Shown piece after piece: positions 43,966 through 63,382 of a DNA stretch of 64,000 nucleotides (its first letter is position 1; every line of letters begins with the position of its first letter). Under the pieces are notes generated by a model. It saw nothing but the letters and a program-made list of their open reading frames with translations, did no database searches and was not told the DNA's origin. A program made the translations under genes and the position numbers. The stretch is from contig JAFCCW010000004.1 in the NCBI GenBank assembly GCA_017609985.1, positions 15,899-79,898 on the forward strand, given 5' to 3'. Origin of the DNA: Candidatus Iainarchaeum sp. (GTDB taxonomy: Archaea > Iainarchaeota > Iainarchaeia > Iainarchaeales > JAFCCW01).

Positions 43966-46659
43966 TTATTTCTTTTTCTTCTTTTTTTCAAATTTCAACA
44001 GAGCCTTGTATGCGTTTTCTTCAGGAATATTCTCCATTTCAAAGCCTCTTGCCTTGCACACATCCACCATTATCCTGTTTTCCTTCATTATTGTGCCGTA
44101 AACCTGCTTTAATCCTCTTTTTCTTGCAATCTCAAGAATATAATCCATCATTTCGCTTCCCAGTCCCTTGCCCTGCCATGGATCCCCCACAACTATTGCA
44201 AACTCTGCACTCTCATTGTTTGGGTCGTGAATAAGCCTTACTACTCCGAGCATTTTTTTCTCACCTTTTTCTTCAGCTTCTGCAATAATTCCTATTTCTC
44301 GGTCATAGTCATTGTGAGTATATCTGACAAGCAAATCATGGGTTACCTCTTTGATTATCCTAAAAAATCTGTACTTCATGGTTTTCTCGCTAAATGTCTT
44401 GAACATTTCTGCTTCCATTGGCTCGTACTCTGGTCTGTTTGGCTTTAGCATGATTTTTTTTCCATCAACATTAATTTCTTTAATCAATTCCTTTGGATAA
44501 GGTCTTATTGCAAGATGTGAATAGGTTTCATCTTTTTCCTTTGGCTCGCTTTCAAGAATAATTCTTGCATCAAGCACAACAGCACCCTGTTCATCAACTA
44601 AAACAGGATTCATATCAACCTCTTTTATTTCCGGAAAGTCAGCAAGCAAATAAGAAAACCTAATAAGCATGTTTTCCAGCTCACGAATATTCGCAGGCTT
44701 CTTGTGCCGGTAACCCTTCATTGCATCAAACACTTTTGTTTCCTCCATAAGCCTTCTTGCAAGAGTCTGTGTTAGGGGTGGCAATGCAATATTTCTGTCC
44801 TTCATAACCTCAACTGCTGTTCCCCCTGCCCCAAAAACAATAACTGAACCAAACAAGCTGTCCTTTTTGGAACCAATCAATACCTCATAACCCTCTTTAT
44901 TAATCATTCTTTGAACAGTGACTCCCTCTACTTTTGCATCTGGATTTGCTTTCTTCACATTCTCCATTATTGTTGTAAAAGCAGTTTCAACTCCTTTTGT
45001 TGACTGCAGGTTAAGAATTACTCCTCCAACATCGCTCTTGTGAGTAACCTCTTTTGAATCAATCTTGAGCACAACAGGAAATCCAATTTTTTCAGCTGCC
45101 TTTCCCGCTTCCAACCCATTCTCTGCCTTAACTGTTTCAACTGAATGAATTCCATACTCTTTCATAAAATTCTTGCTCTCTGCCTCTGTCAAAATCATTC
45201 TCTTTTCCCTGCACGCTCCGGAAATTATTCTTTTCAGTTCTTTCTTGTCTGGATTAATTCCTGAAACAACTGCTTCCGGTGTCTCGTAAAGAAGCTCTAC
45301 ATTGTGCTTGTATCTATACATGTTCATGAAAGTGCTCACAGCATCTTCCGGGGTAAAATAATTTGGAATATTGTTACTGTGAAGAGTATTTACTGCTTCT
45401 CTCACTGAAGTCTCCCCAATAAAAGACGCAAACACTGGCTTATCTGTAAGCTTTGCATTTTCAATAATTGCCTTTGCGCTACCGGTTGCATCACTGCCAT
45501 CCTGTGGAGTAAAGATTGCAAGAATTCCGTCAGCATCAGATTTTTTTGCGCAAACCCTTAGTGCTGAATCATATCTCTCTGCCTTTGCATCTCCCAAGAT
45601 ATCAACTGGATTGCTTCTGCTCCAACACTTTGGAAGAACCGCATCAAGCTCTTTTACTCCCTTACTGTTAAGCGAAGCAAGCTCTCCACCCTTTTCAATT
45701 AATTCATCAGTAGCCATTACTCCTGGTCCGCCTGCGTTTGTAATAATGCAGAGTTTTTTTCCTGAAGGACGGGGCTGCATTCCAAGAACCTGTGCACAGT
45801 TGAACAAGTCTTCAATATCATAAACACGAAGCACTCCAGCTCTCTTGAAAGCAGCATCATATATTGCATCTTCCCCTGCCAAAGCACCAGTGTGGGAAGC
45901 AGCAGCCTCTGCACTCTCCGCAAACCTGCCGCTCTTAACAACAATTATTGGCTTGCTTCTGGCAAAACCTGAAGCAGCAGACATGAAAGATCGCGCATCC
46001 TTTATTGACTCAATATACAAAATAATACTGTGAGTGTGACTGTCTTCTCCAAAATAATCAATCAAATCACCAAAGTCAACGTCAAGCATTGAACCAATCG
46101 AAACAAAGTTGCTGAAACCAATGTTGTTGTAAGTAGCCCAGTCAATAACTGAAGTGCAGAGCGCACCAGACTGGCTTACAAAAGCAACACTTCCTTCCAA
46201 CGGCATCATCGGAGCAAAGCTTGCATTAAGATTCAGTGGAGGCCGAATTATTCCAAGACAATTTGGTCCAATAAGCCTCATGTTCTTTTTTCTGGCAGTT
46301 TCTGCAATATTTTGCTCTAGCTTTTTTCCCTCTTCATCCAACTCTCCAAATCCTGCTGAAACAATTACTGCACCGCCAACGTCTGAATCAGCACATTCTT
46401 GAATCACGCCTGGAACAAACTTTGCAGGAACAGCTACTACTGCTAAATCAATTTCTGCAGGCACTTCTTTTATTGAAGTATACGAGTGTATTCCCTGAAC
46501 ACTTTTATGGTTTGGATTAACTGGGTAAACAGTTCCCTCAAAACCTCTTCCAATCATGTTTTTGAGAAGAGAATAACCAACCGAACCCTGCTTTGAACTG
46601 GCTCCAACCACAGCAATATTCTTGGGAGAAAAAATCTTGTCCAAGTTCTTCGTACTCAA
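43966..46659 (-). CDS. Pat-like protein acetyltransferase: acetyl-CoA synthetase (ADP-forming) alpha/beta-like region fused to C-terminal GNAT domain, 897 aa
   Basis: N-terminal CoA-binding Rossmann (IAVVGASSKQGSVG), a succinyl-CoA-synthetase-like domain, an ATP-grasp, and a C-terminal GNAT (AFxIVVGDPWQGKGLGSEMMDYILEIARKRG). Confidence 0.8.
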   Translation of the reverse strand: MSTKNLDKIFSPKNIAVVGASSKQGSVGYSLLKNMIGRGFEGTVYPVNPNHKSVQGIHSYTSIKEVPAEIDLAVVAVPAKFVPGVIQECADSDVGGAVIVSAGFGELDEEGKKLEQNIAETARKKNMRLIGPNCLGIIRPPLNLNASFAPMMPLEGSVAFVSQSGALCTSVIDWATYNNIGFSNFVSIGSMLDVDFGDLIDYFGEDSHTHSIILYIESIKDARSFMSAASGFARSKPIIVVKSGRFAESAEAAASHTGALAGEDAIYDAAFKRAGVLRVYDIEDLFNCAQVLGMQPRPSGKKLCIITNAGGPGVMATDELIEKGGELASLNSKGVKELDAVLPKCWSRSNPVDILGDAKAERYDSALRVCAKKSDADGILAIFTPQDGSDATGSAKAIIENAKLTDKPVFASFIGETSVREAVNTLHSNNIPNYFTPEDAVSTFMNMYRYKHNVELLYETPEAVVSGINPDKKELKRIISGACREKRMILTEAESKNFMKEYGIHSVETVKAENGLEAGKAAEKIGFPVVLKIDSKEVTHKSDVGGVILNLQSTKGVETAFTTIMENVKKANPDAKVEGVTVQRMINKEGYEVLIGSKKDSLFGSVIVFGAGGTAVEVMKDRNIALPPLTQTLARRLMEETKVFDAMKGYRHKKPANIRELENMLIRFSYLLADFPEIKEVDMNPVLVDEQGAVVLDARIILESEPKEKDETYSHLAIRPYPKELIKEINVDGKKIMLKPNRPEYEPMEAEMFKTFSEKTMKYRFFRIIKEVTHDLLVRYTHNDYDREIGIIAEAEEKGEKKMLGVVRLIHDPNNESAEFAIVVGDPWQGKGLGSEMMDYILEIARKRGLKQVYGTIMKENRIMVDVCKARGFEMENIPEENAYKALLKFEKKKKKK

Positions 46660-56973: not shown

Positions 56974-57345
56974 TTACATCCATTTCATTCCTCTTCTGCC
57001 TCTTCCTCTGAAGAAAGCAGGCTGGAAAGGAATTTCCTCAATATTCTCTGATATGTCATCAATCATTTCCCCAAGGCTTTCAAAGATTGCTCCTGCCTTT
57101 CCGCTTCCCATACTGTAAAAAGAAAAATTTCCTGACTTCCTTGTCTTAACCAGCCCGACGCTTTTAAGTGCAGACAGGTGATGGGAAACAAGAGGCTGTG
57201 ACTGGTTAACCTCTATTGCAATCTGTGAAACAGATTTCTCCCCATCCTTAAGCAACTTCATTATCAAAAGCCTGTTCGGGTCTGAGAGCACGCTGAAAAC
57301 GCGTGCAAAGACAAGCGCTTCCTTTCTTTCCTTAGGTGAAATCAT
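56974..57345 (-). CDS. ArsR/SmtB-family metalloregulatory transcription factor with RG-rich C-terminal tail
   Basis: wHTH LSDPNRLLIMKLL...SVSQIAIEVNQSQPLVSHHLSALKSVGLV. Tail FFRGRGRRGMKWM. Confidence 0.8.
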   Translation of the reverse strand: MISPKERKEALVFARVFSVLSDPNRLLIMKLLKDGEKSVSQIAIEVNQSQPLVSHHLSALKSVGLVKTRKSGNFSFYSMGSGKAGAIFESLGEMIDDISENIEEIPFQPAFFRGRGRRGMKWM

Positions 57346-57407: not shown

Positions 57408-58001
57408 TTATTTTATTCCTTTCAACACAAACATAGCTGCTTTTTGCTCTTCGCTTGATTCAAAAACATTTTCTCCTTCTATTCCAAGAAAGTATTCCTC
57501 TTCAACTTCCTTGAAATGCTTTGAGAACATATTTTTGATTTCTTTCAAATCTTTTTGTTTTATTTTGTTAAAGTAGGAGCCTGGCTTTTTGCTTTTCTCT
57601 TTGAAGTAAGATGACTCTGGGTTCAAAAGCAGAGCAATCACTTTTCCATTCTTGCCCACTACTCTTTTTGTCTCAGCCAGTGCCCTGTCTGTATCTTCCA
57701 CAAACTCCAGTGATGTCACAAACAAGGAAGCGTCAAACTCTTCGTCTTCAAAATCCAGCTTTTTTGCTTCCCCGTGCACTGTTTCCATGAAATCAGGGCA
57801 CTCTTCCAGCATTTGCCTGCTGGAGTCAAGGCATACAACTTTCTTGCCTCCAATCTGCTGCAAGCCGGCTTCCAGCACACATGGGCCGGAACCAATGCTC
57901 AGAATTTTTTTATAAGGAGCAAGCTCTTGCATTACATAAACCAATTCCTTCTCCAGCACCTGCCTGCCAAAATCGGTTTTATAGAAATCCACATAACCCA
58001 T
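57408..58001 (-). CDS. class I SAM-dependent methyltransferase
   Basis: Motif I ILSIGSGPCVLE, an acidic motif II, and motif III NGKVIALL. Confidence 0.7.
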   Translation of the reverse strand: MGYVDFYKTDFGRQVLEKELVYVMQELAPYKKILSIGSGPCVLEAGLQQIGGKKVVCLDSSRQMLEECPDFMETVHGEAKKLDFEDEEFDASLFVTSLEFVEDTDRALAETKRVVGKNGKVIALLLNPESSYFKEKSKKPGSYFNKIKQKDLKEIKNMFSKHFKEVEEEYFLGIEGENVFESSEEQKAAMFVLKGIK

Positions 58002-58005
58002 TCAA

Positions 58006-58317
58006 TCACTTCTTTTCATTCACTGATTTAATTTTTCCATTCAAGTTCTGTTCCTTGTCCCTGCGTTCATCCACTTTCAAAAAAGTCACAAGCCTCATAG
58101 CCCCTTCTTCCAGCACGGCTTTATGCACTGCCTGCATTCCCCTGCAAGCTTCTTCAATATTCTTTGCCTCAAATTCAGTAGCCATTGCCCTGTTCTTTGC
58201 AATGAAACCTTCTTTCTCAAGTGCATTTACTGCCTTTACCACATACCTGCTAACACTCGCAGTTTTTGTCCCAACCGGAACCACACTCAGTTCACAAACA
58301 ATCATTGTGTTACGCAC
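58006..58317 (-). CDS. MTH1187/YkoF-family (thiamine-binding-like) small protein
   Basis: MIVCELSVVPVGTKTASVSRYVVKAVNALEKEG, ferredoxin-like fold signature of the family. Confidence 0.65.
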   Translation of the reverse strand: MRNTMIVCELSVVPVGTKTASVSRYVVKAVNALEKEGFIAKNRAMATEFEAKNIEEACRGMQAVHKAVLEEGAMRLVTFLKVDERRDKEQNLNGKIKSVNEKK

Positions 58318-58318
58318 C

Positions 58319-58663
58319 TTACAGTTTTTCTATTTCTCTGTCAACAGCTCTGACCCAAGCATGCACAATTTTTGTAATCCTTGCTTTCAAATCTTTTTTA
58401 TTCTCTACTTCATAAAAAAAAACATAACCGCCTTTTTGTAAATTGCGCTGAATTCTTCTAACAAGGTTTTTTTCCAGAAGAGTCTTTATTGCTTTTTGCA
58501 CAGTAGTTCTTTCAAGTTCCATTTTTTCAGCTATTCGAATTACTGTTATTGGACTCTTGTTTTTAATCATAAAAAACAAAACATTGTATTCTGTTTTATT
58601 AATTTCAAAAGAACATCTGATTAATTCATCTGGCTTTATTTTTTTGCAGGCAAATGTAATCAT
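58319..58663 (-). CDS. winged helix-turn-helix transcriptional regulator (MarR/TrmB-like)
   Basis: LTKTEYNVLFFMIKN...ITVIRIAEKMELERTTVQKAIKTLLEKNLV. Confidence 0.55.
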   Translation of the reverse strand: MITFACKKIKPDELIRCSFEINKTEYNVLFFMIKNKSPITVIRIAEKMELERTTVQKAIKTLLEKNLVRRIQRNLQKGGYVFFYEVENKKDLKARITKIVHAWVRAVDREIEKL

Positions 58664-58665
58664 CT

Positions 58666-59076
58666 TCAGTTTTCCTCCTTGATTTTAAGCAAATCAAACA
58701 CAATACATAAACCATGTGCTGTTTTAATATTGTTTCGTTTGCACAGGCTTATTGCCTTTTCTGATTCAGAGCCTGGCTGCATCCAGATATTTTTTATCCC
58801 AAGCTCAATGCACTGCGTTACAATCTGTTCAGTAATTTTTGGAGAAACAACAGTTATTACTGTGTCCGGCTTGTGCGGAGTTGATTTCAATTCAGGATAA
58901 CAGGGCTTGTTTCCAATTTGATTGTGTTTAGGGTTTATTGGAACAGCGTTAATTCCCGCACCCAACAGCGCCTCATATATTTTTCTGCCCCACTTCTCTG
59001 GCTTCTGTGAAACACCAACAACAGCAACATAATTGCCTTTCCTAAAAAATTCTTCAGGATTCATTTTTGTTTCCAA
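58666..59076 (-). CDS. CoA-binding domain protein (YccU/YneT-like Rossmann)
   Basis: VAVVGVSQKPEKWGRKIYEALLGAGINAVPINPK and a WMQPG motif. Confidence 0.7.
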   Translation of the reverse strand: METKMNPEEFFRKGNYVAVVGVSQKPEKWGRKIYEALLGAGINAVPINPKHNQIGNKPCYPELKSTPHKPDTVITVVSPKITEQIVTQCIELGIKNIWMQPGSESEKAISLCKRNNIKTAHGLCIVFDLLKIKEEN

Positions 59077-59386
59077 AAATCTTGCGTATCAAAGATTTTT
59101 TAATCCCAAGCGCTTTCTCCAGCTTGTTTATAAGAGCTCCCTCTTCAGGGGTTCCAACAAACCTAAACAGCTGGTTTTCATCACCATCAACACAAACAAT
59201 TGTGGGGTAAGCACTTATCCCAAATTTGCCTGAAAGCTCTTTTGCCTCTGGAGTTTTTGCCCTGACCTTCCTGTATTCAAGACCATGGCTTTCATGGCTG
59301 AGGGCAACTTTTTTTGCAAGCGATGCTGCCTTTGGGCAGTGAGGGCAACCTGATGAAACAAAAACAAGCAATTCCATGGCTATCAA
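59054..59386 (-). CDS. thioredoxin-fold protein (CPHC active site)
   Basis: VFVSSGCPHCPKA, cis-Pro region YPTIV. Confidence 0.7.
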   Translation of the reverse strand: MIAMELLVFVSSGCPHCPKAASLAKKVALSHESHGLEYRKVRAKTPEAKELSGKFGISAYPTIVCVDGDENQLFRFVGTPEEGALINKLEKALGIKKSLIRKIFGNKNES

Positions 59387-59387
59387 T

Positions 59388-59672
59388 TCACACTTTTACA
59401 AATAGCCTGCAATGGCACTGTCCGTCCTTTTCAATTTCTTCTTCATGATAAACACAAGGGCAAATTATTTTTTTGTCCTCTTCTTTGTCTCCTGTAACAC
59501 GCCTGCAAGGGCAGTATTGTTCTCCATGTTTTTCTTCATTCAACAGAAGCCCTTTTATTATGCCGTCTGCTATTTTCCTGTCAGGGTTAATTTTTATCCC
59601 AGTTTCTTCAGCAAATTTTTCTGATTTTTCCCGTACTTCAACCATTTTTTTTTCAAGTTCTTTTTCTTCCAT
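59388..59672 (-). CDS. ferredoxin:thioredoxin reductase catalytic-subunit-like protein (FTR-like)
   Basis: CPC...CPC...CHC triad (YCPCRRV, ICPCVYH, CHCRLF). Confidence 0.7.
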   Translation of the reverse strand: MEEKELEKKMVEVREKSEKFAEETGIKINPDRKIADGIIKGLLLNEEKHGEQYCPCRRVTGDKEEDKKIICPCVYHEEEIEKDGQCHCRLFVKV

Positions 59673-59851
59673 TAATTTCCCCCCATTTCAATTGCATTGT
59701 TTGGGCAGGCCCTGATACAGGCACCACATTTCCTGCAGTTTTCCGGATGAACAACAACTGCCTTGCCATTTATTAGCTCAAGCACGCCAAAAGGGCAGGC
59801 TTTCACGCAAACACCACAGCCTTCACATTTTCCCTCAATTATTTTTACCAT
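59672..59851 (-). CDS. 2x[4Fe-4S] ferredoxin (59 aa)
   Basis: Manual translation MVKIIEGKCEGCGVCVKACPFGVLELINGKAVVVHPENCRKCGACIRACPNNAIEMGGN. Its stop overlaps the FTR start (TAATG). Confidence 0.75.
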   Translation of the reverse strand: MVKIIEGKCEGCGVCVKACPFGVLELINGKAVVVHPENCRKCGACIRACPNNAIEMGGN

Positions 59852-60846
59852 TAATCCGCCTCCTCAATGCAAATCTCTTTTCTTTTAATTGCTCTGATTG
59901 TTTTAATCACTAAAAGCAATACAACCAAATTTAGAAATAAGAATATTCCCCACGAAGCTATTTTAAAAAATTCCAGTTTTGTTTCATGGTACATTAAGAA
60001 TGTTCCAATAGCAAGTGCGTCTATTGGGAATGAATAAGCCCACCAGGACAGGTAAAACTTAATCTTGGAGAACAGTTTATACTGAAACAAAATTAGAATA
60101 AACAGAAATAACCCAAAATAATAAAGCAAATTGCCAATCGGGGTAAGTCCGCCTAGCAATTTTGTCAGGGCAATAAATCCAATTACAGGCGGCGCGAACA
60201 GAATAAAAAAGGTCGGAATCAATTTATCATCTATGGCTTGGTGAAATATTACCCTGTGCATAACCAAAGTAAACAAGATAAGCCACCAGAAAATTCCAAT
60301 GCTAAAAAAGAACCAGGATAACTCCGGAGAGAAATGTTTTATTCCCGCAATAGGAATTAATATGCTTCCAACAACAGGAATAAACCAGGATGGATTAATA
60401 TGGCGTATTTCAAATTTATCATGTTTAATCCAGGAAGACATTATTATGATTGTAAAAATAAACTGGATTGTGACTCCCATCCACCAAGCATATTTTGATA
60501 TTGTGAGATTTAAACCCAGATAGATAATGCTGACAATCAAAAACAATTTTGCAATTATTGGGTAAAAATTGAGCTTAATCGGATGGTTAAACTCTTTCTT
60601 GACTTCCAGAGGATACTTAGCTAATTTCAAAAGATAAATTATAAAAATAACCAATATTACGATTATTGAAAAATACAGCAAATAACCGCTAACCATAAAA
60701 GGCAATTCCAGTATCTGCTCTGCTTTCTGCCATGCAAGAGTAAAACCAATTAAACCCAAGGCAATAGCCAAAAAAGATATTGGAAAATTTCTTAGCCGAC
60801 TAAGGTCTACAAATTTACCTGCTTTTTTCAGTTTAGTTTTTATCAT
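59851..60846 (-). CDS. TDT/TehA/SLAC1-family anion (C4-dicarboxylate / tellurite-resistance type) transporter
   Basis: About 10 TM helices with the family N-terminus FPISFLAIALGLIGFTLAW. Confidence 0.7.
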   Translation of the reverse strand: MIKTKLKKAGKFVDLSRLRNFPISFLAIALGLIGFTLAWQKAEQILELPFMVSGYLLYFSIIVILVIFIIYLLKLAKYPLEVKKEFNHPIKLNFYPIIAKLFLIVSIIYLGLNLTISKYAWWMGVTIQFIFTIIIMSSWIKHDKFEIRHINPSWFIPVVGSILIPIAGIKHFSPELSWFFFSIGIFWWLILFTLVMHRVIFHQAIDDKLIPTFFILFAPPVIGFIALTKLLGGLTPIGNLLYYFGLFLFILILFQYKLFSKIKFYLSWWAYSFPIDALAIGTFLMYHETKLEFFKIASWGIFLFLNLVVLLLVIKTIRAIKRKEICIEEAD

Positions 60847-60915: not shown

Positions 60916-61710
60916 TTATATTCCCTCTGCCTTCAAGAATGGGCACTTGTTTTCTTTTGCCTTTCCATCAAGCACAGCGCGGATAAATTCATTGCAAGAA
61001 GCAAACCCGCATTTTCCGCAATTTCTATTGGGGATTCTTGCCTTCAGGCTTTTGCCAAGCTTGTATCTCTTCAGTGTCTCATCAGAATCAACTGTTTTGT
61101 TTCCATAACAATAACCGCAAACAGCAGTAGGCATTGCGTGCTTTAAAGTAATCTTTCCTCTGATCTCTGGGCTGTTTCTGATTGCCTCGGCGATGTCAAT
61201 TGCGCCCTCGCCTGTCAAACCATTTGACTCAACAAGCAATGTTCCTTTTTCAGTCACCTTAACAACTTCTGACCTGAAAATTTCCCTCTCAGCCTGAGAA
61301 ATTAAATCCCCCTTGGTTAAAGCAACAACATCAGCCTGTGTCAGCAAAGGCCCATAGCTCGATGGTTTTCCGGATAAAATGTTTAACACGTTTATTGCAA
61401 GACCTTCATGTATGTACGGAGAGCACCTTAAGCACAAGCCAGCTGTTTCAAGCAGGATAAGGTCTTTGTCTTTGTTACTTTCAATGATTTTTGGAATTTC
61501 AAGCGCAGCATAATGGTCTGGGCAAACATCTCCTGAAATCTTTTTTTCAGTGCTTATCCCAAACTTTTCTTTTATCAATATATGGTCTTCAGTGTTCAGA
61601 ACATCAAATTTGACATAATGAATATTCAAATCTTTAAGTTCCTGAATAATAAACTTTATTGCACTAGTTTTTCCGCTTCCGGGCGTACCGCCAACAATAA
61701 CAAGTTTCAT
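60916..61710 (-). CDS. divergent HypB/UreG-family (G3E) P-loop NTPase with C-terminal Cys-rich extension
   Basis: Collinear with HypB: GTPGSGKTSA (P-loop), GDVCPDHYAAL (cf. CHLDA metal site), LLETAGLCLRCSPY (cf. ENVGNLVCP), TKGDL (cf. NKxD), SNGLTGEGAIDI (cf. SAKTGEG). Extra tail CGYCYGNK...CGKCGFASCNEF...CPF. Confidence 0.6.
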   Translation of the reverse strand: MKLVIVGGTPGSGKTSAIKFIIQELKDLNIHYVKFDVLNTEDHILIKEKFGISTEKKISGDVCPDHYAALEIPKIIESNKDKDLILLETAGLCLRCSPYIHEGLAINVLNILSGKPSSYGPLLTQADVVALTKGDLISQAEREIFRSEVVKVTEKGTLLVESNGLTGEGAIDIAEAIRNSPEIRGKITLKHAMPTAVCGYCYGNKTVDSDETLKRYKLGKSLKARIPNRNCGKCGFASCNEFIRAVLDGKAKENKCPFLKAEGI

Positions 61711-61713
61711 ATC

Positions 61714-62517
61714 CTATGCCTCCATTGGTGTGCAGATAAGCTTTAATTCTTCAATCTGCTTTCCTTTCCTTACTTCTTCCCTTACATCAAGAATGTAATT
61801 ATTAATCCAGGAAAGATAGTTTGCAATGCCTCTTTCTTTTATAGAAGTATAAATTATGTTCTTTATCGCGCCTGACTTCATCACAAGCCTTTTGTCAGTA
61901 TCCAAAGCAAGAATAGGGTCATGAGTAACCAAAAAAATAATTTTGCCTTTTTTTATCAGCAAGTCAAGCGCGCTCTTAATTCTTATGCCTGCATTTTCTA
62001 TTTCATCAATCAAAATAATGGGGGACTCGCTGACATGGGCAAGATCAGAAATCATTAAAGCCCTTGACTGCCCGCCAGACAATATAAGCAAGTTCATTCC
62101 CTTATCAATTTTTTCACCAGTAATAGTGTTAGCATCATCTATTATTTTATCAATAAGCTGCTCTGTGCTCTTTTTTGACCTGTGTTTTCCCCTTGTTTTA
62201 ATATGGGATTCAAGAAAATCCTTCACACTAGAATCAGTCATAAAATTCATGTGCTGAGTAAGATATCCAATTATTTTCTGGGACGGGTCAATCTTAAAAT
62301 TTTTTCCAACAGGTTTTCCATTAATTAAAATCTTTCTTCCTGTTTTTGTTTCCCCTGACGCGATTTTTTCAATATCATACAATAGCTGACTCTTTCCGGA
62401 GCCGGTTGGTCCGACAATTCCTGTTTTCTGCCCGGCAAAAATGTCAATGCTTCCAAATTTCTCCTTGCTTCCATTTTTTCCTTTTCCTGCCAGAATAGAA
62501 AGCTTATCAATTTTCAT
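61714..62517 (-). CDS. ABC-transporter ATP-binding protein (no permease gene adjacent)
   Basis: Walker A GPTGSGKS, Q-loop, signature LSGGQ, Walker B ILIDE, H-loop THD. Confidence 0.8.
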   Translation of the reverse strand: MKIDKLSILAGKGKNGSKEKFGSIDIFAGQKTGIVGPTGSGKSQLLYDIEKIASGETKTGRKILINGKPVGKNFKIDPSQKIIGYLTQHMNFMTDSSVKDFLESHIKTRGKHRSKKSTEQLIDKIIDDANTITGEKIDKGMNLLILSGGQSRALMISDLAHVSESPIILIDEIENAGIRIKSALDLLIKKGKIIFLVTHDPILALDTDKRLVMKSGAIKNIIYTSIKERGIANYLSWINNYILDVREEVRKGKQIEELKLICTPMEA

Positions 62518-62597: not shown

Positions 62598-62999
62598 CTA
62601 TTGCAGGTTCTTGTCCAGCCACTGTTTAACCGCCGGCTCGGGCAATGCTCCTACAAATTCGTCAACAACCTGGCCATTCTTGAACATTTTTACTGCTGGG
62701 ATTCCTGAAATTCCGTGCCTGCTGCTTGTAACCGGGTTTTCATCAACGTTAAGTTTTGCCAGAACAAACTTTCCCTGAAATTCTTTTGCGAACTTTTCAA
62801 GGCTTGGCCCAAGCATTAAACAAGGAGTGCACCAGGTAGCCCAAAAATCAACAGCGACAGGCACTGTTTTTGATTTTTCCAATACCTCTTCTTCAAAATT
62901 GCTGTCATTAACTTGAATTTCTGTTTTAATCCTGCTTGTTTCAAGTTTTTTTTTCATTTCTTTCAGTTTTTTTTCTTTGATATCCTCAGCTTCGTTCAT
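62598..62999 (-). CDS. trxA: thioredoxin (WCTPC active site)
   Basis: VAVDFWATWCTPCLMLGP...KLNVDENP...GISGIPAVKMF. Confidence 0.85.
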   Translation of the reverse strand: MNEAEDIKEKKLKEMKKKLETSRIKTEIQVNDSNFEEEVLEKSKTVPVAVDFWATWCTPCLMLGPSLEKFAKEFQGKFVLAKLNVDENPVTSSRHGISGIPAVKMFKNGQVVDEFVGALPEPAVKQWLDKNLQ

Positions 63000-63076: not shown

Positions 63077-63104
63077 AAAAAATCACACCCGTTTGTGATT
63101 TTTT
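63077..63104. promoter_or_regulatory. 11-bp inverted repeat AAAAAATCACA-N6-TGTGATTTTTT upstream of trxA
   Basis: Read directly. Core TCACA-N6-TGTGA. It lies 80-105 nt upstream of the trxA ATG at 62999 and about 100 nt downstream of the small ORF 63206..63382. Confidence 0.35.
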
Positions 63105-63134
63105 TACCCCTACTCAAGTTTCTGTGTTCAAATA

Positions 63135-63205: not shown

Positions 63206-63382
63206 TCAGTCAATTGTTTCAATAGTAAATTTTACTTTTTTTCTCATGCCAATCTCAGGCACAAACAAGGAAAGAAAATCACCAATATCCGCCCCATCAC
63301 CCTCACACCCAAGATGATTAAAGTCTTTATTGCCCATTTTCTCAATCCTGTTGAACAAATAACCTGTTGTTGTTTTTTTCAT
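63206..63382 (-). CDS. hypothetical small protein (58 aa)
   Basis: Manual translation MKKTTTGYLFNRIEKMGNKDFNHLGCEGDGADIGDFLSLFVPEIGMRKKVKFTIETID. No motif recognised. Below the ORF-track cutoff. Confidence 0.3.
   Translation of the reverse strand: MKKTTTGYLFNRIEKMGNKDFNHLGCEGDGADIGDFLSLFVPEIGMRKKVKFTIETID

Follow-up and report, generated by a model that had tools for sequence, protein, structure and literature searches.

The genes discussed here lie in a window of 64,000 nucleotides (the whole stretch of DNA analysed) from Candidatus Iainarchaeum sp., whose genome assembly (37 contigs, 1.16 Mb) has a completeness of 86.6%. Between 57.4 and 63.4 kb of this window every gene is on the minus strand, and among them a ferredoxin, a protein resembling the catalytic subunit of ferredoxin:thioredoxin reductase (FTR), a thioredoxin-fold redoxin with a CPHC motif, a coenzyme A (CoA)-binding protein and a winged-helix (wHTH) regulator follow one another. 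Sequence comparisons indicate that they form a real and conserved system, apparently a new variant of the theme in which FTR, or the related ferredoxin:disulfide reductase (FDR), is coupled to a thioredoxin, and that the link between the CoA-binding domain and the regulator is its unexpected part. The original prediction had described four tightly packed genes, from the ferredoxin to the CoA-binding protein, flanked by a wHTH regulator and an anion transporter. All four are indeed there, in that order and joined by overlaps or gaps of 1-10 nt; the regulator (58319-58663) and the transporter (59851-60846) are also present, but as members of the same packed run and not as mere flanks. The run thus consists of eight genes instead of four, from the TehA-type transporter to a methyltransferase:

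59851-60846, minus strand: anion transporter of the SLAC1/TehA type (TDT family), with which the packed run begins (PF03595, 167.7 bits)
59672-59851, minus strand: 2x[4Fe-4S] ferredoxin of 59 aa (Fer4_7, 65.5 bits; Fer4, 61.5 bits; two CxxCxxCxxxCP motifs)
59388-59672, minus strand: FTR catalytic-subunit-like protein of 94 aa (PF02943 FeThRed_B, 89.5 bits)
59054-59386, minus strand: CPHC thioredoxin-fold redoxin (Pfam Thioredoxin, 25.2 bits)
58666-59076, minus strand: single-domain CoA_binding_2 protein (PF13380, 106.9 bits; PF02629, 35.6 bits)
58319-58663, minus strand: wHTH regulator (Pfam matches to MarR, TrmB and DnaD_N)
58006-58317, minus strand: MTH1187-family protein (PF01910, 81.6 bits; TIGR00106, 86.7 bits, over the cut-off)
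57408-58001, minus strand: Methyltransf_11 methyltransferase (PF08241, 53.7 bits)

Overlaps or gaps of at most 4 nt run throughout from 60846 to 57408, with 1-10 nt between the FTR and the redoxin genes. The TehA/ferredoxin and the ferredoxin/FTR junctions each consist of a TAATG with a 1-nt overlap, the CoA-binding gene, with the ATG at 59064 as its start, shares 11 nt with the redoxin gene, 2 nt separate the CoA-binding gene from that of the regulator, and the MTH1187 and methyltransferase genes follow with gaps of 1-4 nt. Several of the starts are preceded by Shine-Dalgarno-like GGAGG runs, and the first larger gap going upstream is that of 69 nt ahead of TehA, which contains a TATA-like ATATTTAT. 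Since the order ferredoxin-FTR-redoxin-CoA-binding protein-wHTH recurs in other genomes, it is not a chance juxtaposition.

The FTR-like reductase and its ferredoxin

The protein with the CPC/CPC/CHC triad belongs, as had been predicted, to the family of FTR catalytic subunits. It matches FeThRed_B at 89.5 bits (E 1.8e-25; curated cut-off of 22 bits) over profile positions 5-87 of 106, and its motifs, CPC (54-56), CPC (71-73) and CHC (86-88), are spaced as CPC-x14-CPC-x12-CHC. In 26 relatives the six cysteines (C54, C56, C71, C73, C86 and C88) and H76 are invariant, and the residue inside the last CxC can be H, L, F, Q or K, so that CHC is not required throughout the clade. Its closest homologues are found in DPANN archaea and in bacteria of the Candidate Phyla Radiation (CPR). 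Among the proteins of solved structure, the best matches are 7pwe_A (E 1.4e-18) and 4tpu_A (E 6.5e-18), followed by the catalytic subunits (FTRc) of plant and cyanobacterial FTRs, at E-values from 1e-7 to 6e-9.

In Methanosarcina, atypical thioredoxins are reduced by FDRs, which are Fe-S enzymes and relatives of FTRc (PMC6262447), and the reference list of that article includes a work on an FDR delivering electrons to the class III ribonucleotide reductase of M. barkeri. The Methanosarcina acetivorans FDR (4tpu, a PDB entry bearing the name 'Rubredoxin') and 7pwe, an FTR subunit B, both share with the window protein the FeThRed_B core, the six cysteines in a CPC-x14-CPC-x12-CxC arrangement and the lack of a variable subunit. 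Unlike them (173 and 196 aa, respectively), which carry a rubredoxin or an N-terminal extension, the window protein is limited to the 94-aa core. Furthermore, the last motif of its triad agrees with the CHC of plant FTR and not with CYC, and the His of its CPCxYH motif (H76), invariant in the DPANN/CPR clade, is an Arg in the solved FDR-type chains. The plant and cyanobacterial FTRs (1dj7, 2pu9 and 7bzk), in turn, belong to the same Pfam family, have the same CPC/CPC/CHC triad and follow the same logic, in which electrons go from a ferredoxin to an Fe-S/disulfide enzyme and from it to a thioredoxin. Nevertheless, their cysteine spacing, as read from the alignment, is about x16/x8 in place of x14/x12, and they consist of FTRc and a variable subunit, FTRv, whose family (FeThRed_A, PF02941) has no match in the window genome at its 86.6% completeness, whereas a control Synechococcus genome gives one. 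In addition, the plant system uses a [2Fe-2S] ferredoxin, while the presumed electron donor encoded next to the window enzyme is of the 2x[4Fe-4S] type, as the original prediction had stated. A ferredoxin gene adjoins the FTR gene in L123, L124, L131, L138, L148, L173, L175, L178 and L180 as well (the L numbers denote loci of other genomes, except L002, a locus of the window genome). Altogether, the window enzyme would best be named a minimal, stand-alone reductase of the FDR/FTRc type, a probable activity suggested by its family, the adjacent ferredoxin and redoxin genes and the literature on FDR.

The CoA-binding protein was considered as a substitute for the variable subunit, and this idea was rejected, as such a neighbour is missing beside most FTR genes of DPANN/CPR: all four FTR homologues on long DPANN/CPR contigs adjoin a canonical thioredoxin gene, two of the four also a ferredoxin gene, and none a CoA-binding gene. 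Likewise, FTR was rejected as the sole thioredoxin reductase of this organism, given that contig C27 of the same genome carries a gene for a flavoenzyme resembling thioredoxin reductase (TrxR). The genome encodes two canonical thioredoxins; homologues of the one encoded in the window (44-66% identity) usually adjoin FTR or TrxR in other DPANN/CPR loci. It also has a pyruvate:ferredoxin oxidoreductase-type gene (POR_N, 242.8 bits), which makes both a supply of reduced ferredoxin and CoA chemistry plausible.

There is also a second FTR module in this genome, on contig C13 (L002:974-2965), with genes for an ArsR regulator, a Grx/NrdH-like protein with CPFC, an FTR-like protein in which CLC takes the place of CHC, a membrane protein resembling ECF-S, a ferredoxin and a DUF1858 protein. 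With its Grx-like CPFC protein, its FTR-like protein and its ferredoxin, it is even closer than the window module to the path from FDR to NrdH in M. barkeri, a species in which, as Wei et al. (2015) are reported to have found, a small redoxin encoded beside FDR carries the electrons. In the stretches read, a ribonucleotide reductase gene lies beside neither of the two modules, and the window module has the CoA-binding protein and the regulator instead.

The redoxin, the CoA-binding protein and the regulator

The CPHC redoxin, which probably begins at the ATG at 59377 and would then have 107 aa, the length given in the public database, had been predicted to have a thioredoxin fold, and in agreement with it the protein scores 25.2 bits against Pfam Thioredoxin (PF00085), over the cut-off of 23.5. 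Its structural relatives are the C-terminal unit of the protein disulfide oxidoreductase (PDO) of Pyrococcus (1a8l and 1j08) and the MJ0307 thioredoxin (1fo5), although it stays below the cut-offs of the corresponding models (TIGR00411, MJ0307 family, 42.8 vs 92.75 bits; TIGR02187, PDO, 47 vs 185 bits). The family was gathered through the loci found with a wHTH alignment (see below), and a scan of genome contigs with the CPHC redoxin alone gave no match. Conserved across 18 loci are the CxxC, the PT in the cis-Pro loop and, unusually, a basic-hydrophobic tail at the C-terminus with the form LGL-[KR]KS-F..[KR]-FG, and these redoxins are treated here as a putative separate subfamily defined by that tail. 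All the homologues with a readable context lie in the block from ferredoxin to wHTH, and in 15 of 29 cases the gene immediately ahead of the CoA-binding one encodes a redoxin of this subfamily.

The next protein, as had been proposed, is a CoA-binding Rossmann protein: it matches PF13380 at 106.9 bits (cut-off of 22.8) over profile positions 3-113 of 116. Its probable start is the ATG at 59064, resulting in 132 aa like its homologues. The best structural match is 1y81_A (E 3.4e-22), followed by PH1109 (2d59, E 2.8e-15). These correspond to PF0725 (1y81) and PH1109 (2d59/2d5a/2e6u) of Pyrococcus, members of the same family with the same size, a nearly full-length match and shared GxS...K.G, NP and W.Q.G motifs and late cysteine. 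That cysteine (C124 in the numbering from the TTG) is nearly invariant, being present in 89 of 91 sequences. To our knowledge, no function has been assigned to either Pyrococcus protein, and literature searches on single-domain COG1832/PF13380 proteins returned nothing useful. CoA is the presumed ligand, judging by the motifs shared with the solved Pyrococcus proteins. What distinguishes the window protein from PF0725 and PH1109 is its link to a CxxC redoxin and to a regulator with a cysteine pair, to which it is fused in relatives, a distinction known from genome context alone.

The regulator scores below the NCBIfam cut-offs for Sta1 (NF053606, 65.8 vs 80 bits) and Lrs14 (NF040939, 63.3 vs 90 bits), and belongs to a family related to but distinct from Lrs14/Sta1, only distantly similar to Lrs14/MarR and typified by PDB 3r0a. 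The latter, a 'Putative transcriptional regulator' from structural genomics with no function attached, which we take to be from Methanosarcina mazei, matches the family over its full length (3r0a_A, E 2.2e-38) and has the same FACK...C cysteine pair. A total of 282 relatives were found among 1.84 billion representatives, 101 of them below E 1e-10. In an alignment of 40 sequences, with identities as low as 34%, the same residue is kept throughout in just four columns, two of which are C6 and C17, an N-terminal pair (C-x10-C). Species-representative genomes were also scanned with a wHTH alignment, and the contents of the resulting 67 loci, from Iainarchaeum, Aenigmatarchaeota, Woesearchaeota, Micrarchaeota, Nanohalarchaeota and other archaeal metagenome-assembled genomes (MAGs), were read by tblastn with the window proteins. 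In 48 of the 67, the wHTH gene has upstream of it, on its own strand and no more than 2.5 kb away, a gene for a thioredoxin (Trx), TrxR, FTR, glutaredoxin (Grx) or CPHC redoxin, compared to a chance rate of a few per cent, a rough estimate from about 1,200 genes and about seven such genes with no computed control. Neither a thioredoxin-system gene nor a CoA-binding gene is found in 11 of the 67, four of which have a cut upstream flank. Since this invariant cysteine pair occurs in a regulator that is nearly always behind thioredoxin genes, it points to a thiol-based switch formed by C6 and C17.

In 21 of the 67 loci, in one gene order or the other, no more than 150 nt lie between the CoA-binding and wHTH genes. 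The CoA-binding gene accompanies those of the regulator and the CPHC redoxin with either type of reductase, FTR or flavin TrxR. Furthermore, in L131 and L138 and in the ENA protein P0132 a CoA_binding_2 domain is followed by the wHTH domain in one open frame of 247-251 residues (L131:3599-4339, L138:3599-4339 and L126:605-1354, the latter corresponding to P0132). As these are three separate sequences (68% identity between L131 and L138, 56% between P0132 and L138), a single assembly error is unlikely. In an AlphaFold2 model of the L138 fusion both domains are confident (mean pLDDT of 92.1), with a pTM of 0.59, a linker (129-137) below a pLDDT of 50 and no fixed packing, and a predicted complex of the regulator, the CoA-binding protein and CoA scores 0.28 (mark of 0.32), which speaks neither for nor against their association. 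A quick tree of 118 CoA-binding proteins places the wHTH-linked ones in two groups, namely a main group (20 of 23; support of 90, not starred) and a separate one with the reverse gene order (support of 95). The wHTH-link label changes 8 times on this tree versus 21 in shuffles, which, as relatives share labels, shows clustering only. The sister group of the main group, as well as L033, has the CoA-binding gene directly behind a canonical thioredoxin gene. Because it tracks the regulator and can be fused to it, the CoA-binding protein seems to have a sensing or regulatory role rather than that of a catalytic end-point; this suggests that it is the sensor half of a transcription regulator with a cysteine pair, and not the end of the electron path.

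Two known regulators provide a frame for such an arrangement. Rex is a repressor sensing NADH/NAD+ in which a winged helix is joined to a Rossmann-type domain of the Pfam CoA_binding family (PF02629), and the window CoA-binding protein also matches that family (35.6 bits). In Thermococcales, the winged-helix regulator SurR has a CxxC as its redox switch and is encoded next to a PDO, whose C-terminal unit is what the CPHC redoxin resembles most. Nonetheless, the domain order of the fusions is reversed with respect to Rex, and the wHTH cysteines are spaced as C-x10-C and not as the CxxC of SurR.

In the window, an 897-aa open reading frame (ORF) at 43966-46659 (minus strand) also has an N-terminal part with a weak match to a CoA-binding domain (E 2.4e-7); it resembles the acyl-CoA-synthetase-like or protein-acetyltransferase chains that came up in the PDB search.

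Conservation of the block and exchange of reductase units

The order ferredoxin-FTR-redoxin-CoA-wHTH is found in about 12 other contigs, mostly from Iainarchaeum-type DPANN MAGs (G019/L175, L123, L124/L146, L131, L138, L148, L173, L178 and L180), with differing upstream contexts. On the cut contig L125 the order is FTR-redoxin-CoA-wHTH, a thioredoxin gene takes the first place in L128 (Trx-FTR-redoxin-CoA-wHTH), and L155 has Trx-FTR-redoxin-CoA before the end of the locus. The arrangements read around the wHTH gene are as follows:

Full block: ten of the 67 genomes of the wHTH scan (L128, L131, L138, L146, L148, L155, L173, L175, L178 and L180)
Trx, flavin TrxR, a 1.2-kb gene, then redoxin-CoA-wHTH: L163, L165, L166 and L168
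Trx-TrxR-wHTH, CoA-binding gene missing: around ten loci
FTR-wHTH: four loci
Grx-wHTH: five loci
Reverse order, with wHTH ahead of CoA: four to six loci

Besides, L032/L152 show the order Trx-TehA-like-TrxR-wHTH-CoA. The reductase unit is thus exchangeable, being either ferredoxin/FTR or NAD(P)H/TrxR, and the redoxin-CoA-wHTH trio stays. This modifies the prediction of a ferredoxin-to-disulfide module with a CoA-binding partner: the FTR gene is packed with those of a ferredoxin and a CxxC redoxin in a conserved order, but the CoA-binding gene does not track FTR.

The 1.2-kb gene of the TrxR-type loci encodes a glutamate dehydrogenase in L166, the only one in which its identity was read. There, a dehydrogenase able to make NAD(P)H is found inside a thioredoxin operon (L166:670-4345), replacing ferredoxin and FTR.

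Further genes surround the packed run in the window:

63209-63382, minus strand: conserved small ORF of 58 aa with a GCEG motif, upstream of the thioredoxin gene
62598-62999, minus strand: canonical thioredoxin (WCTPC; PF00085, 96.2 bits; TIGR01068, 103.9 bits, over the cut-off), about 3 kb upstream of the ferredoxin-FTR block
61714-62517, minus strand: ABC-type ATPase (Pfam)
60916-61710, minus strand: CobW/HypB-like GTPase with a C-terminal PF04060 Fe-S domain (Pfam)
56974-57345, minus strand: ArsR regulator (Pfam/NCBIfam)

In G019, a genome with the same block order, the block lies behind the same Trx-ABC-CobW/FeS-TehA run as in the window. The TehA gene has the same place in G019/L175 and L138 and is less than 1 kb upstream of FTR in L155, and L032/L152 and L143 have a more distant relative; given its absence from L123, L124 and L173, it is considered accessory. 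The wHTH-MTH1187-methyltransferase order is also present in L187. The Trx-ABC-CobW/FeS trio, or its ABC-CobW/FeS part in cut loci, is found with 71-86% identity in L130, L131, L138, L139, L173, L175, L178 and L180, well above the identity of the block genes (50-66%), and L155 retains only the CobW/FeS gene, at the edge of the locus. Some of the records compared have titles that look wrong, namely L146 (JAFCBY010000047.1), L178 and L155, titled 'Candidatus Falkowbacteria', 'Chloroflexi bacterium' and 'Thaumarchaeota', with genes 50-88% identical to the Iainarchaeum block.

The small ORF belongs to a family of 58-77 aa starting with MKKT and containing the GCEG motif (e.g., L028:6254-6457, L123:381-614 and L124:615-836). 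It has no Pfam family match, and tblastn with the ORFs of 67-77 aa from G019, L123 and L124 finds it at 63209-63382 with 64-72% identity (E of about 1e-25). It is present in 13 of the 67 wHTH loci, and in relatives the ferredoxin gene of the block comes right after it. In the window, a palindrome that ends in a T-run, AAAAAATCACA-N6-TGTGATTTTTT (63085-63125, minus strand), lies in the gap separating this ORF from the thioredoxin gene. Its TCACA/TGTGA words are not common to other loci (either of them in 12 of 58 upstream regions), and instead of serving as an operator, it could terminate transcription of the small ORF.

Proposed mechanism and alternatives

Taken together, the locus could be a self-regulated operon of a small DPANN archaeon from the Iainarchaeum order for thioredoxin-type disulfide reduction driven by ferredoxin, made of a reductase unit and a sensor-regulator unit, a proposal that in our judgement has an even chance of being correct. 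In it, the reduced 2x[4Fe-4S] ferredoxin would pass electrons to the 94-aa FTR-like enzyme, in which a redox-active disulfide would adjoin a [4Fe-4S] cluster and no variable subunit would take part. This enzyme would reduce the adjacent CPHC redoxin and probably also the canonical thioredoxin encoded 3 kb upstream, the latter serving general disulfide reduction and the former a special task, which would probably be the resetting of the regulator with the cysteine pair. The sensor-regulator unit would thus comprise the CPHC redoxin, the CoA-binding protein and the wHTH protein with C6/C17 as its thiol switch, and the CoA-binding protein would act as the ligand-binding partner of the regulator, reporting the state of CoA or of CoA thiols in a layout comparable to those of Rex and SurR/PDO. 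A more ambitious version, which we regard as rather doubtful, is that the CoA-binding domain and the wHTH with its cysteine pair constitute, split or fused, a new class of transcription factors, a 'Rex for coenzyme A' sensing the CoA thiol pool (CoASH vs CoA-disulfide, or S-CoAlation of C6/C17), controlling the thioredoxin systems of DPANN archaea and being reset by the CPHC redoxin.

Several observations weigh against the proposed operon and its sensor. About 60% of the wHTH loci have no CoA-binding gene nearby, and the CoA-binding protein would therefore be accessory to the regulator; conversely, most CoA_binding_2 homologues, including the more distant ones, have no wHTH neighbour. Most of the DPANN/CPR FTR homologues are beside a canonical thioredoxin and not beside a CPHC redoxin, and the partner of the window FTR may therefore be either redoxin. 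The TrxR-like flavoenzyme on contig C27, which scores 329 bits against TIGR01292, just under the cut-off of 343, is another possible thioredoxin reductase. The two cysteines per wHTH monomer could equally be metal or Fe-S ligands, this being the main alternative to a disulfide switch. The NCBIfam matches of the regulator and of the CoA-binding protein include no Rex or SurR model (for Rex, at E <=0.01), so that the likeness to Rex is one of architecture only. No operator motif shared by 58 upstream regions was found when inverted repeats with 5-nt arms were counted, and the search of sequencing runs listed no RNA run and only one DNA run, with a small word share (0.12).

Where else could the electrons end? 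The main rival, less supported, takes up the CoA-disulfide chemistry suggested by the original prediction: the path from ferredoxin through FTR and the CPHC redoxin would end on the CoA-binding protein, presenting CoA-disulfide, CoA-persulfide or CoAlated proteins, as a ferredoxin-dependent stand-in for CoA-disulfide reductase. It would account well for the position of the redoxin gene directly upstream of the CoA-binding gene in those 15 of 29 cases, with the 11-nt overlap in the window, for the close CoA-binding homologues directly behind canonical thioredoxin in L033, L046 and L081, and for the almost invariant cysteine; moreover, no gene of the size of a CoA-disulfide reductase was found in the genome, at its given completeness. 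This chemistry is nevertheless unlikely in view of the three contigs in which one protein joins the CoA-binding domain with a DNA-binding one (which only weaken it, as enzyme-regulator fusions exist), of the CoA-binding gene tracking the regulator in both orders even with no adjacent redoxin (L034, L150, L171, L182 and L188), and of the protein being a 132-aa single Rossmann-like domain, for which no catalytic activity is known.

Two other explanations start from the neighbouring genes. The block might serve an adjacent ORP/COG1149 iron-sulfur gene cluster, with ferredoxin, FTR and redoxin providing thiol reductant for Fe-S or persulfide handling and the wHTH as the Fe-S/metal sensor of that cluster. 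Paired COG1149 ferredoxin-ATPase genes do come right after the wHTH gene, or after the MTH1187-methyltransferase pair, in L123, L124/L146, L148, L155, L173, L175, L178, L180 and L187, and two cysteines per monomer could hold a cluster bridging a dimer. Outside the Iainarchaeum-type genomes, however, the wHTH gene comes behind Trx-TrxR, FTR or Grx, and COG1149 genes do not follow it (in L166, the next is an eIF-2-beta-like gene), and the constant partner of the regulator is therefore the thioredoxin system and not the ORP cluster, which makes this explanation quite improbable. Least probable of all, and hardly to be expected, is an operon for the detoxification of oxyanions (tellurite, selenite or sulfite), combining the TehA-type transporter, the thiol reductase and the methyltransferase in a way loosely reminiscent of TehAB. 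The overlap of the TehA/SLAC1 gene with the start of the ferredoxin gene, the TehA-like genes of G019/L175, L138, L155, L032/L152 and L143, the recurrence of a Methyltransf_11 gene near the block and the nearby ArsR genes would fit it, but TehA is missing from the full blocks of L123, L124, L148, L173, L178 and L180, the methyltransferase is a generic Methyltransf_11 protein with no match to the TehB family, and that of L124 has no detectable relation to the window's.

As regards the self-regulated disulfide-reduction operon that is preferred here, the four-gene arrangement had been described as having no assigned function. In agreement with this, literature searches yielded nothing that gives it one, and no paper joining ferredoxin-thioredoxin reductase with CoA-binding proteins or with DPANN was found. 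The DPANN archaea have tiny genomes and almost no biochemistry, and we know of no account of how they keep their thiols reduced. In this context, the locus would represent a compact thioredoxin system of interchangeable modules, in which either a ferredoxin and an FTR-like enzyme or a glutamate dehydrogenase and a flavin TrxR feed the same trio. It would also provide a candidate function for three families, namely the single-domain CoA-binding proteins (1y81 and 2d59), the 3r0a-type regulators and the tailed CPHC redoxins, presented as families with solved structures and no known role. Finally, if it is true that the CoA-binding protein is the sensor of the regulator, this would be a direct link from the CoA thiol pool to transcription.

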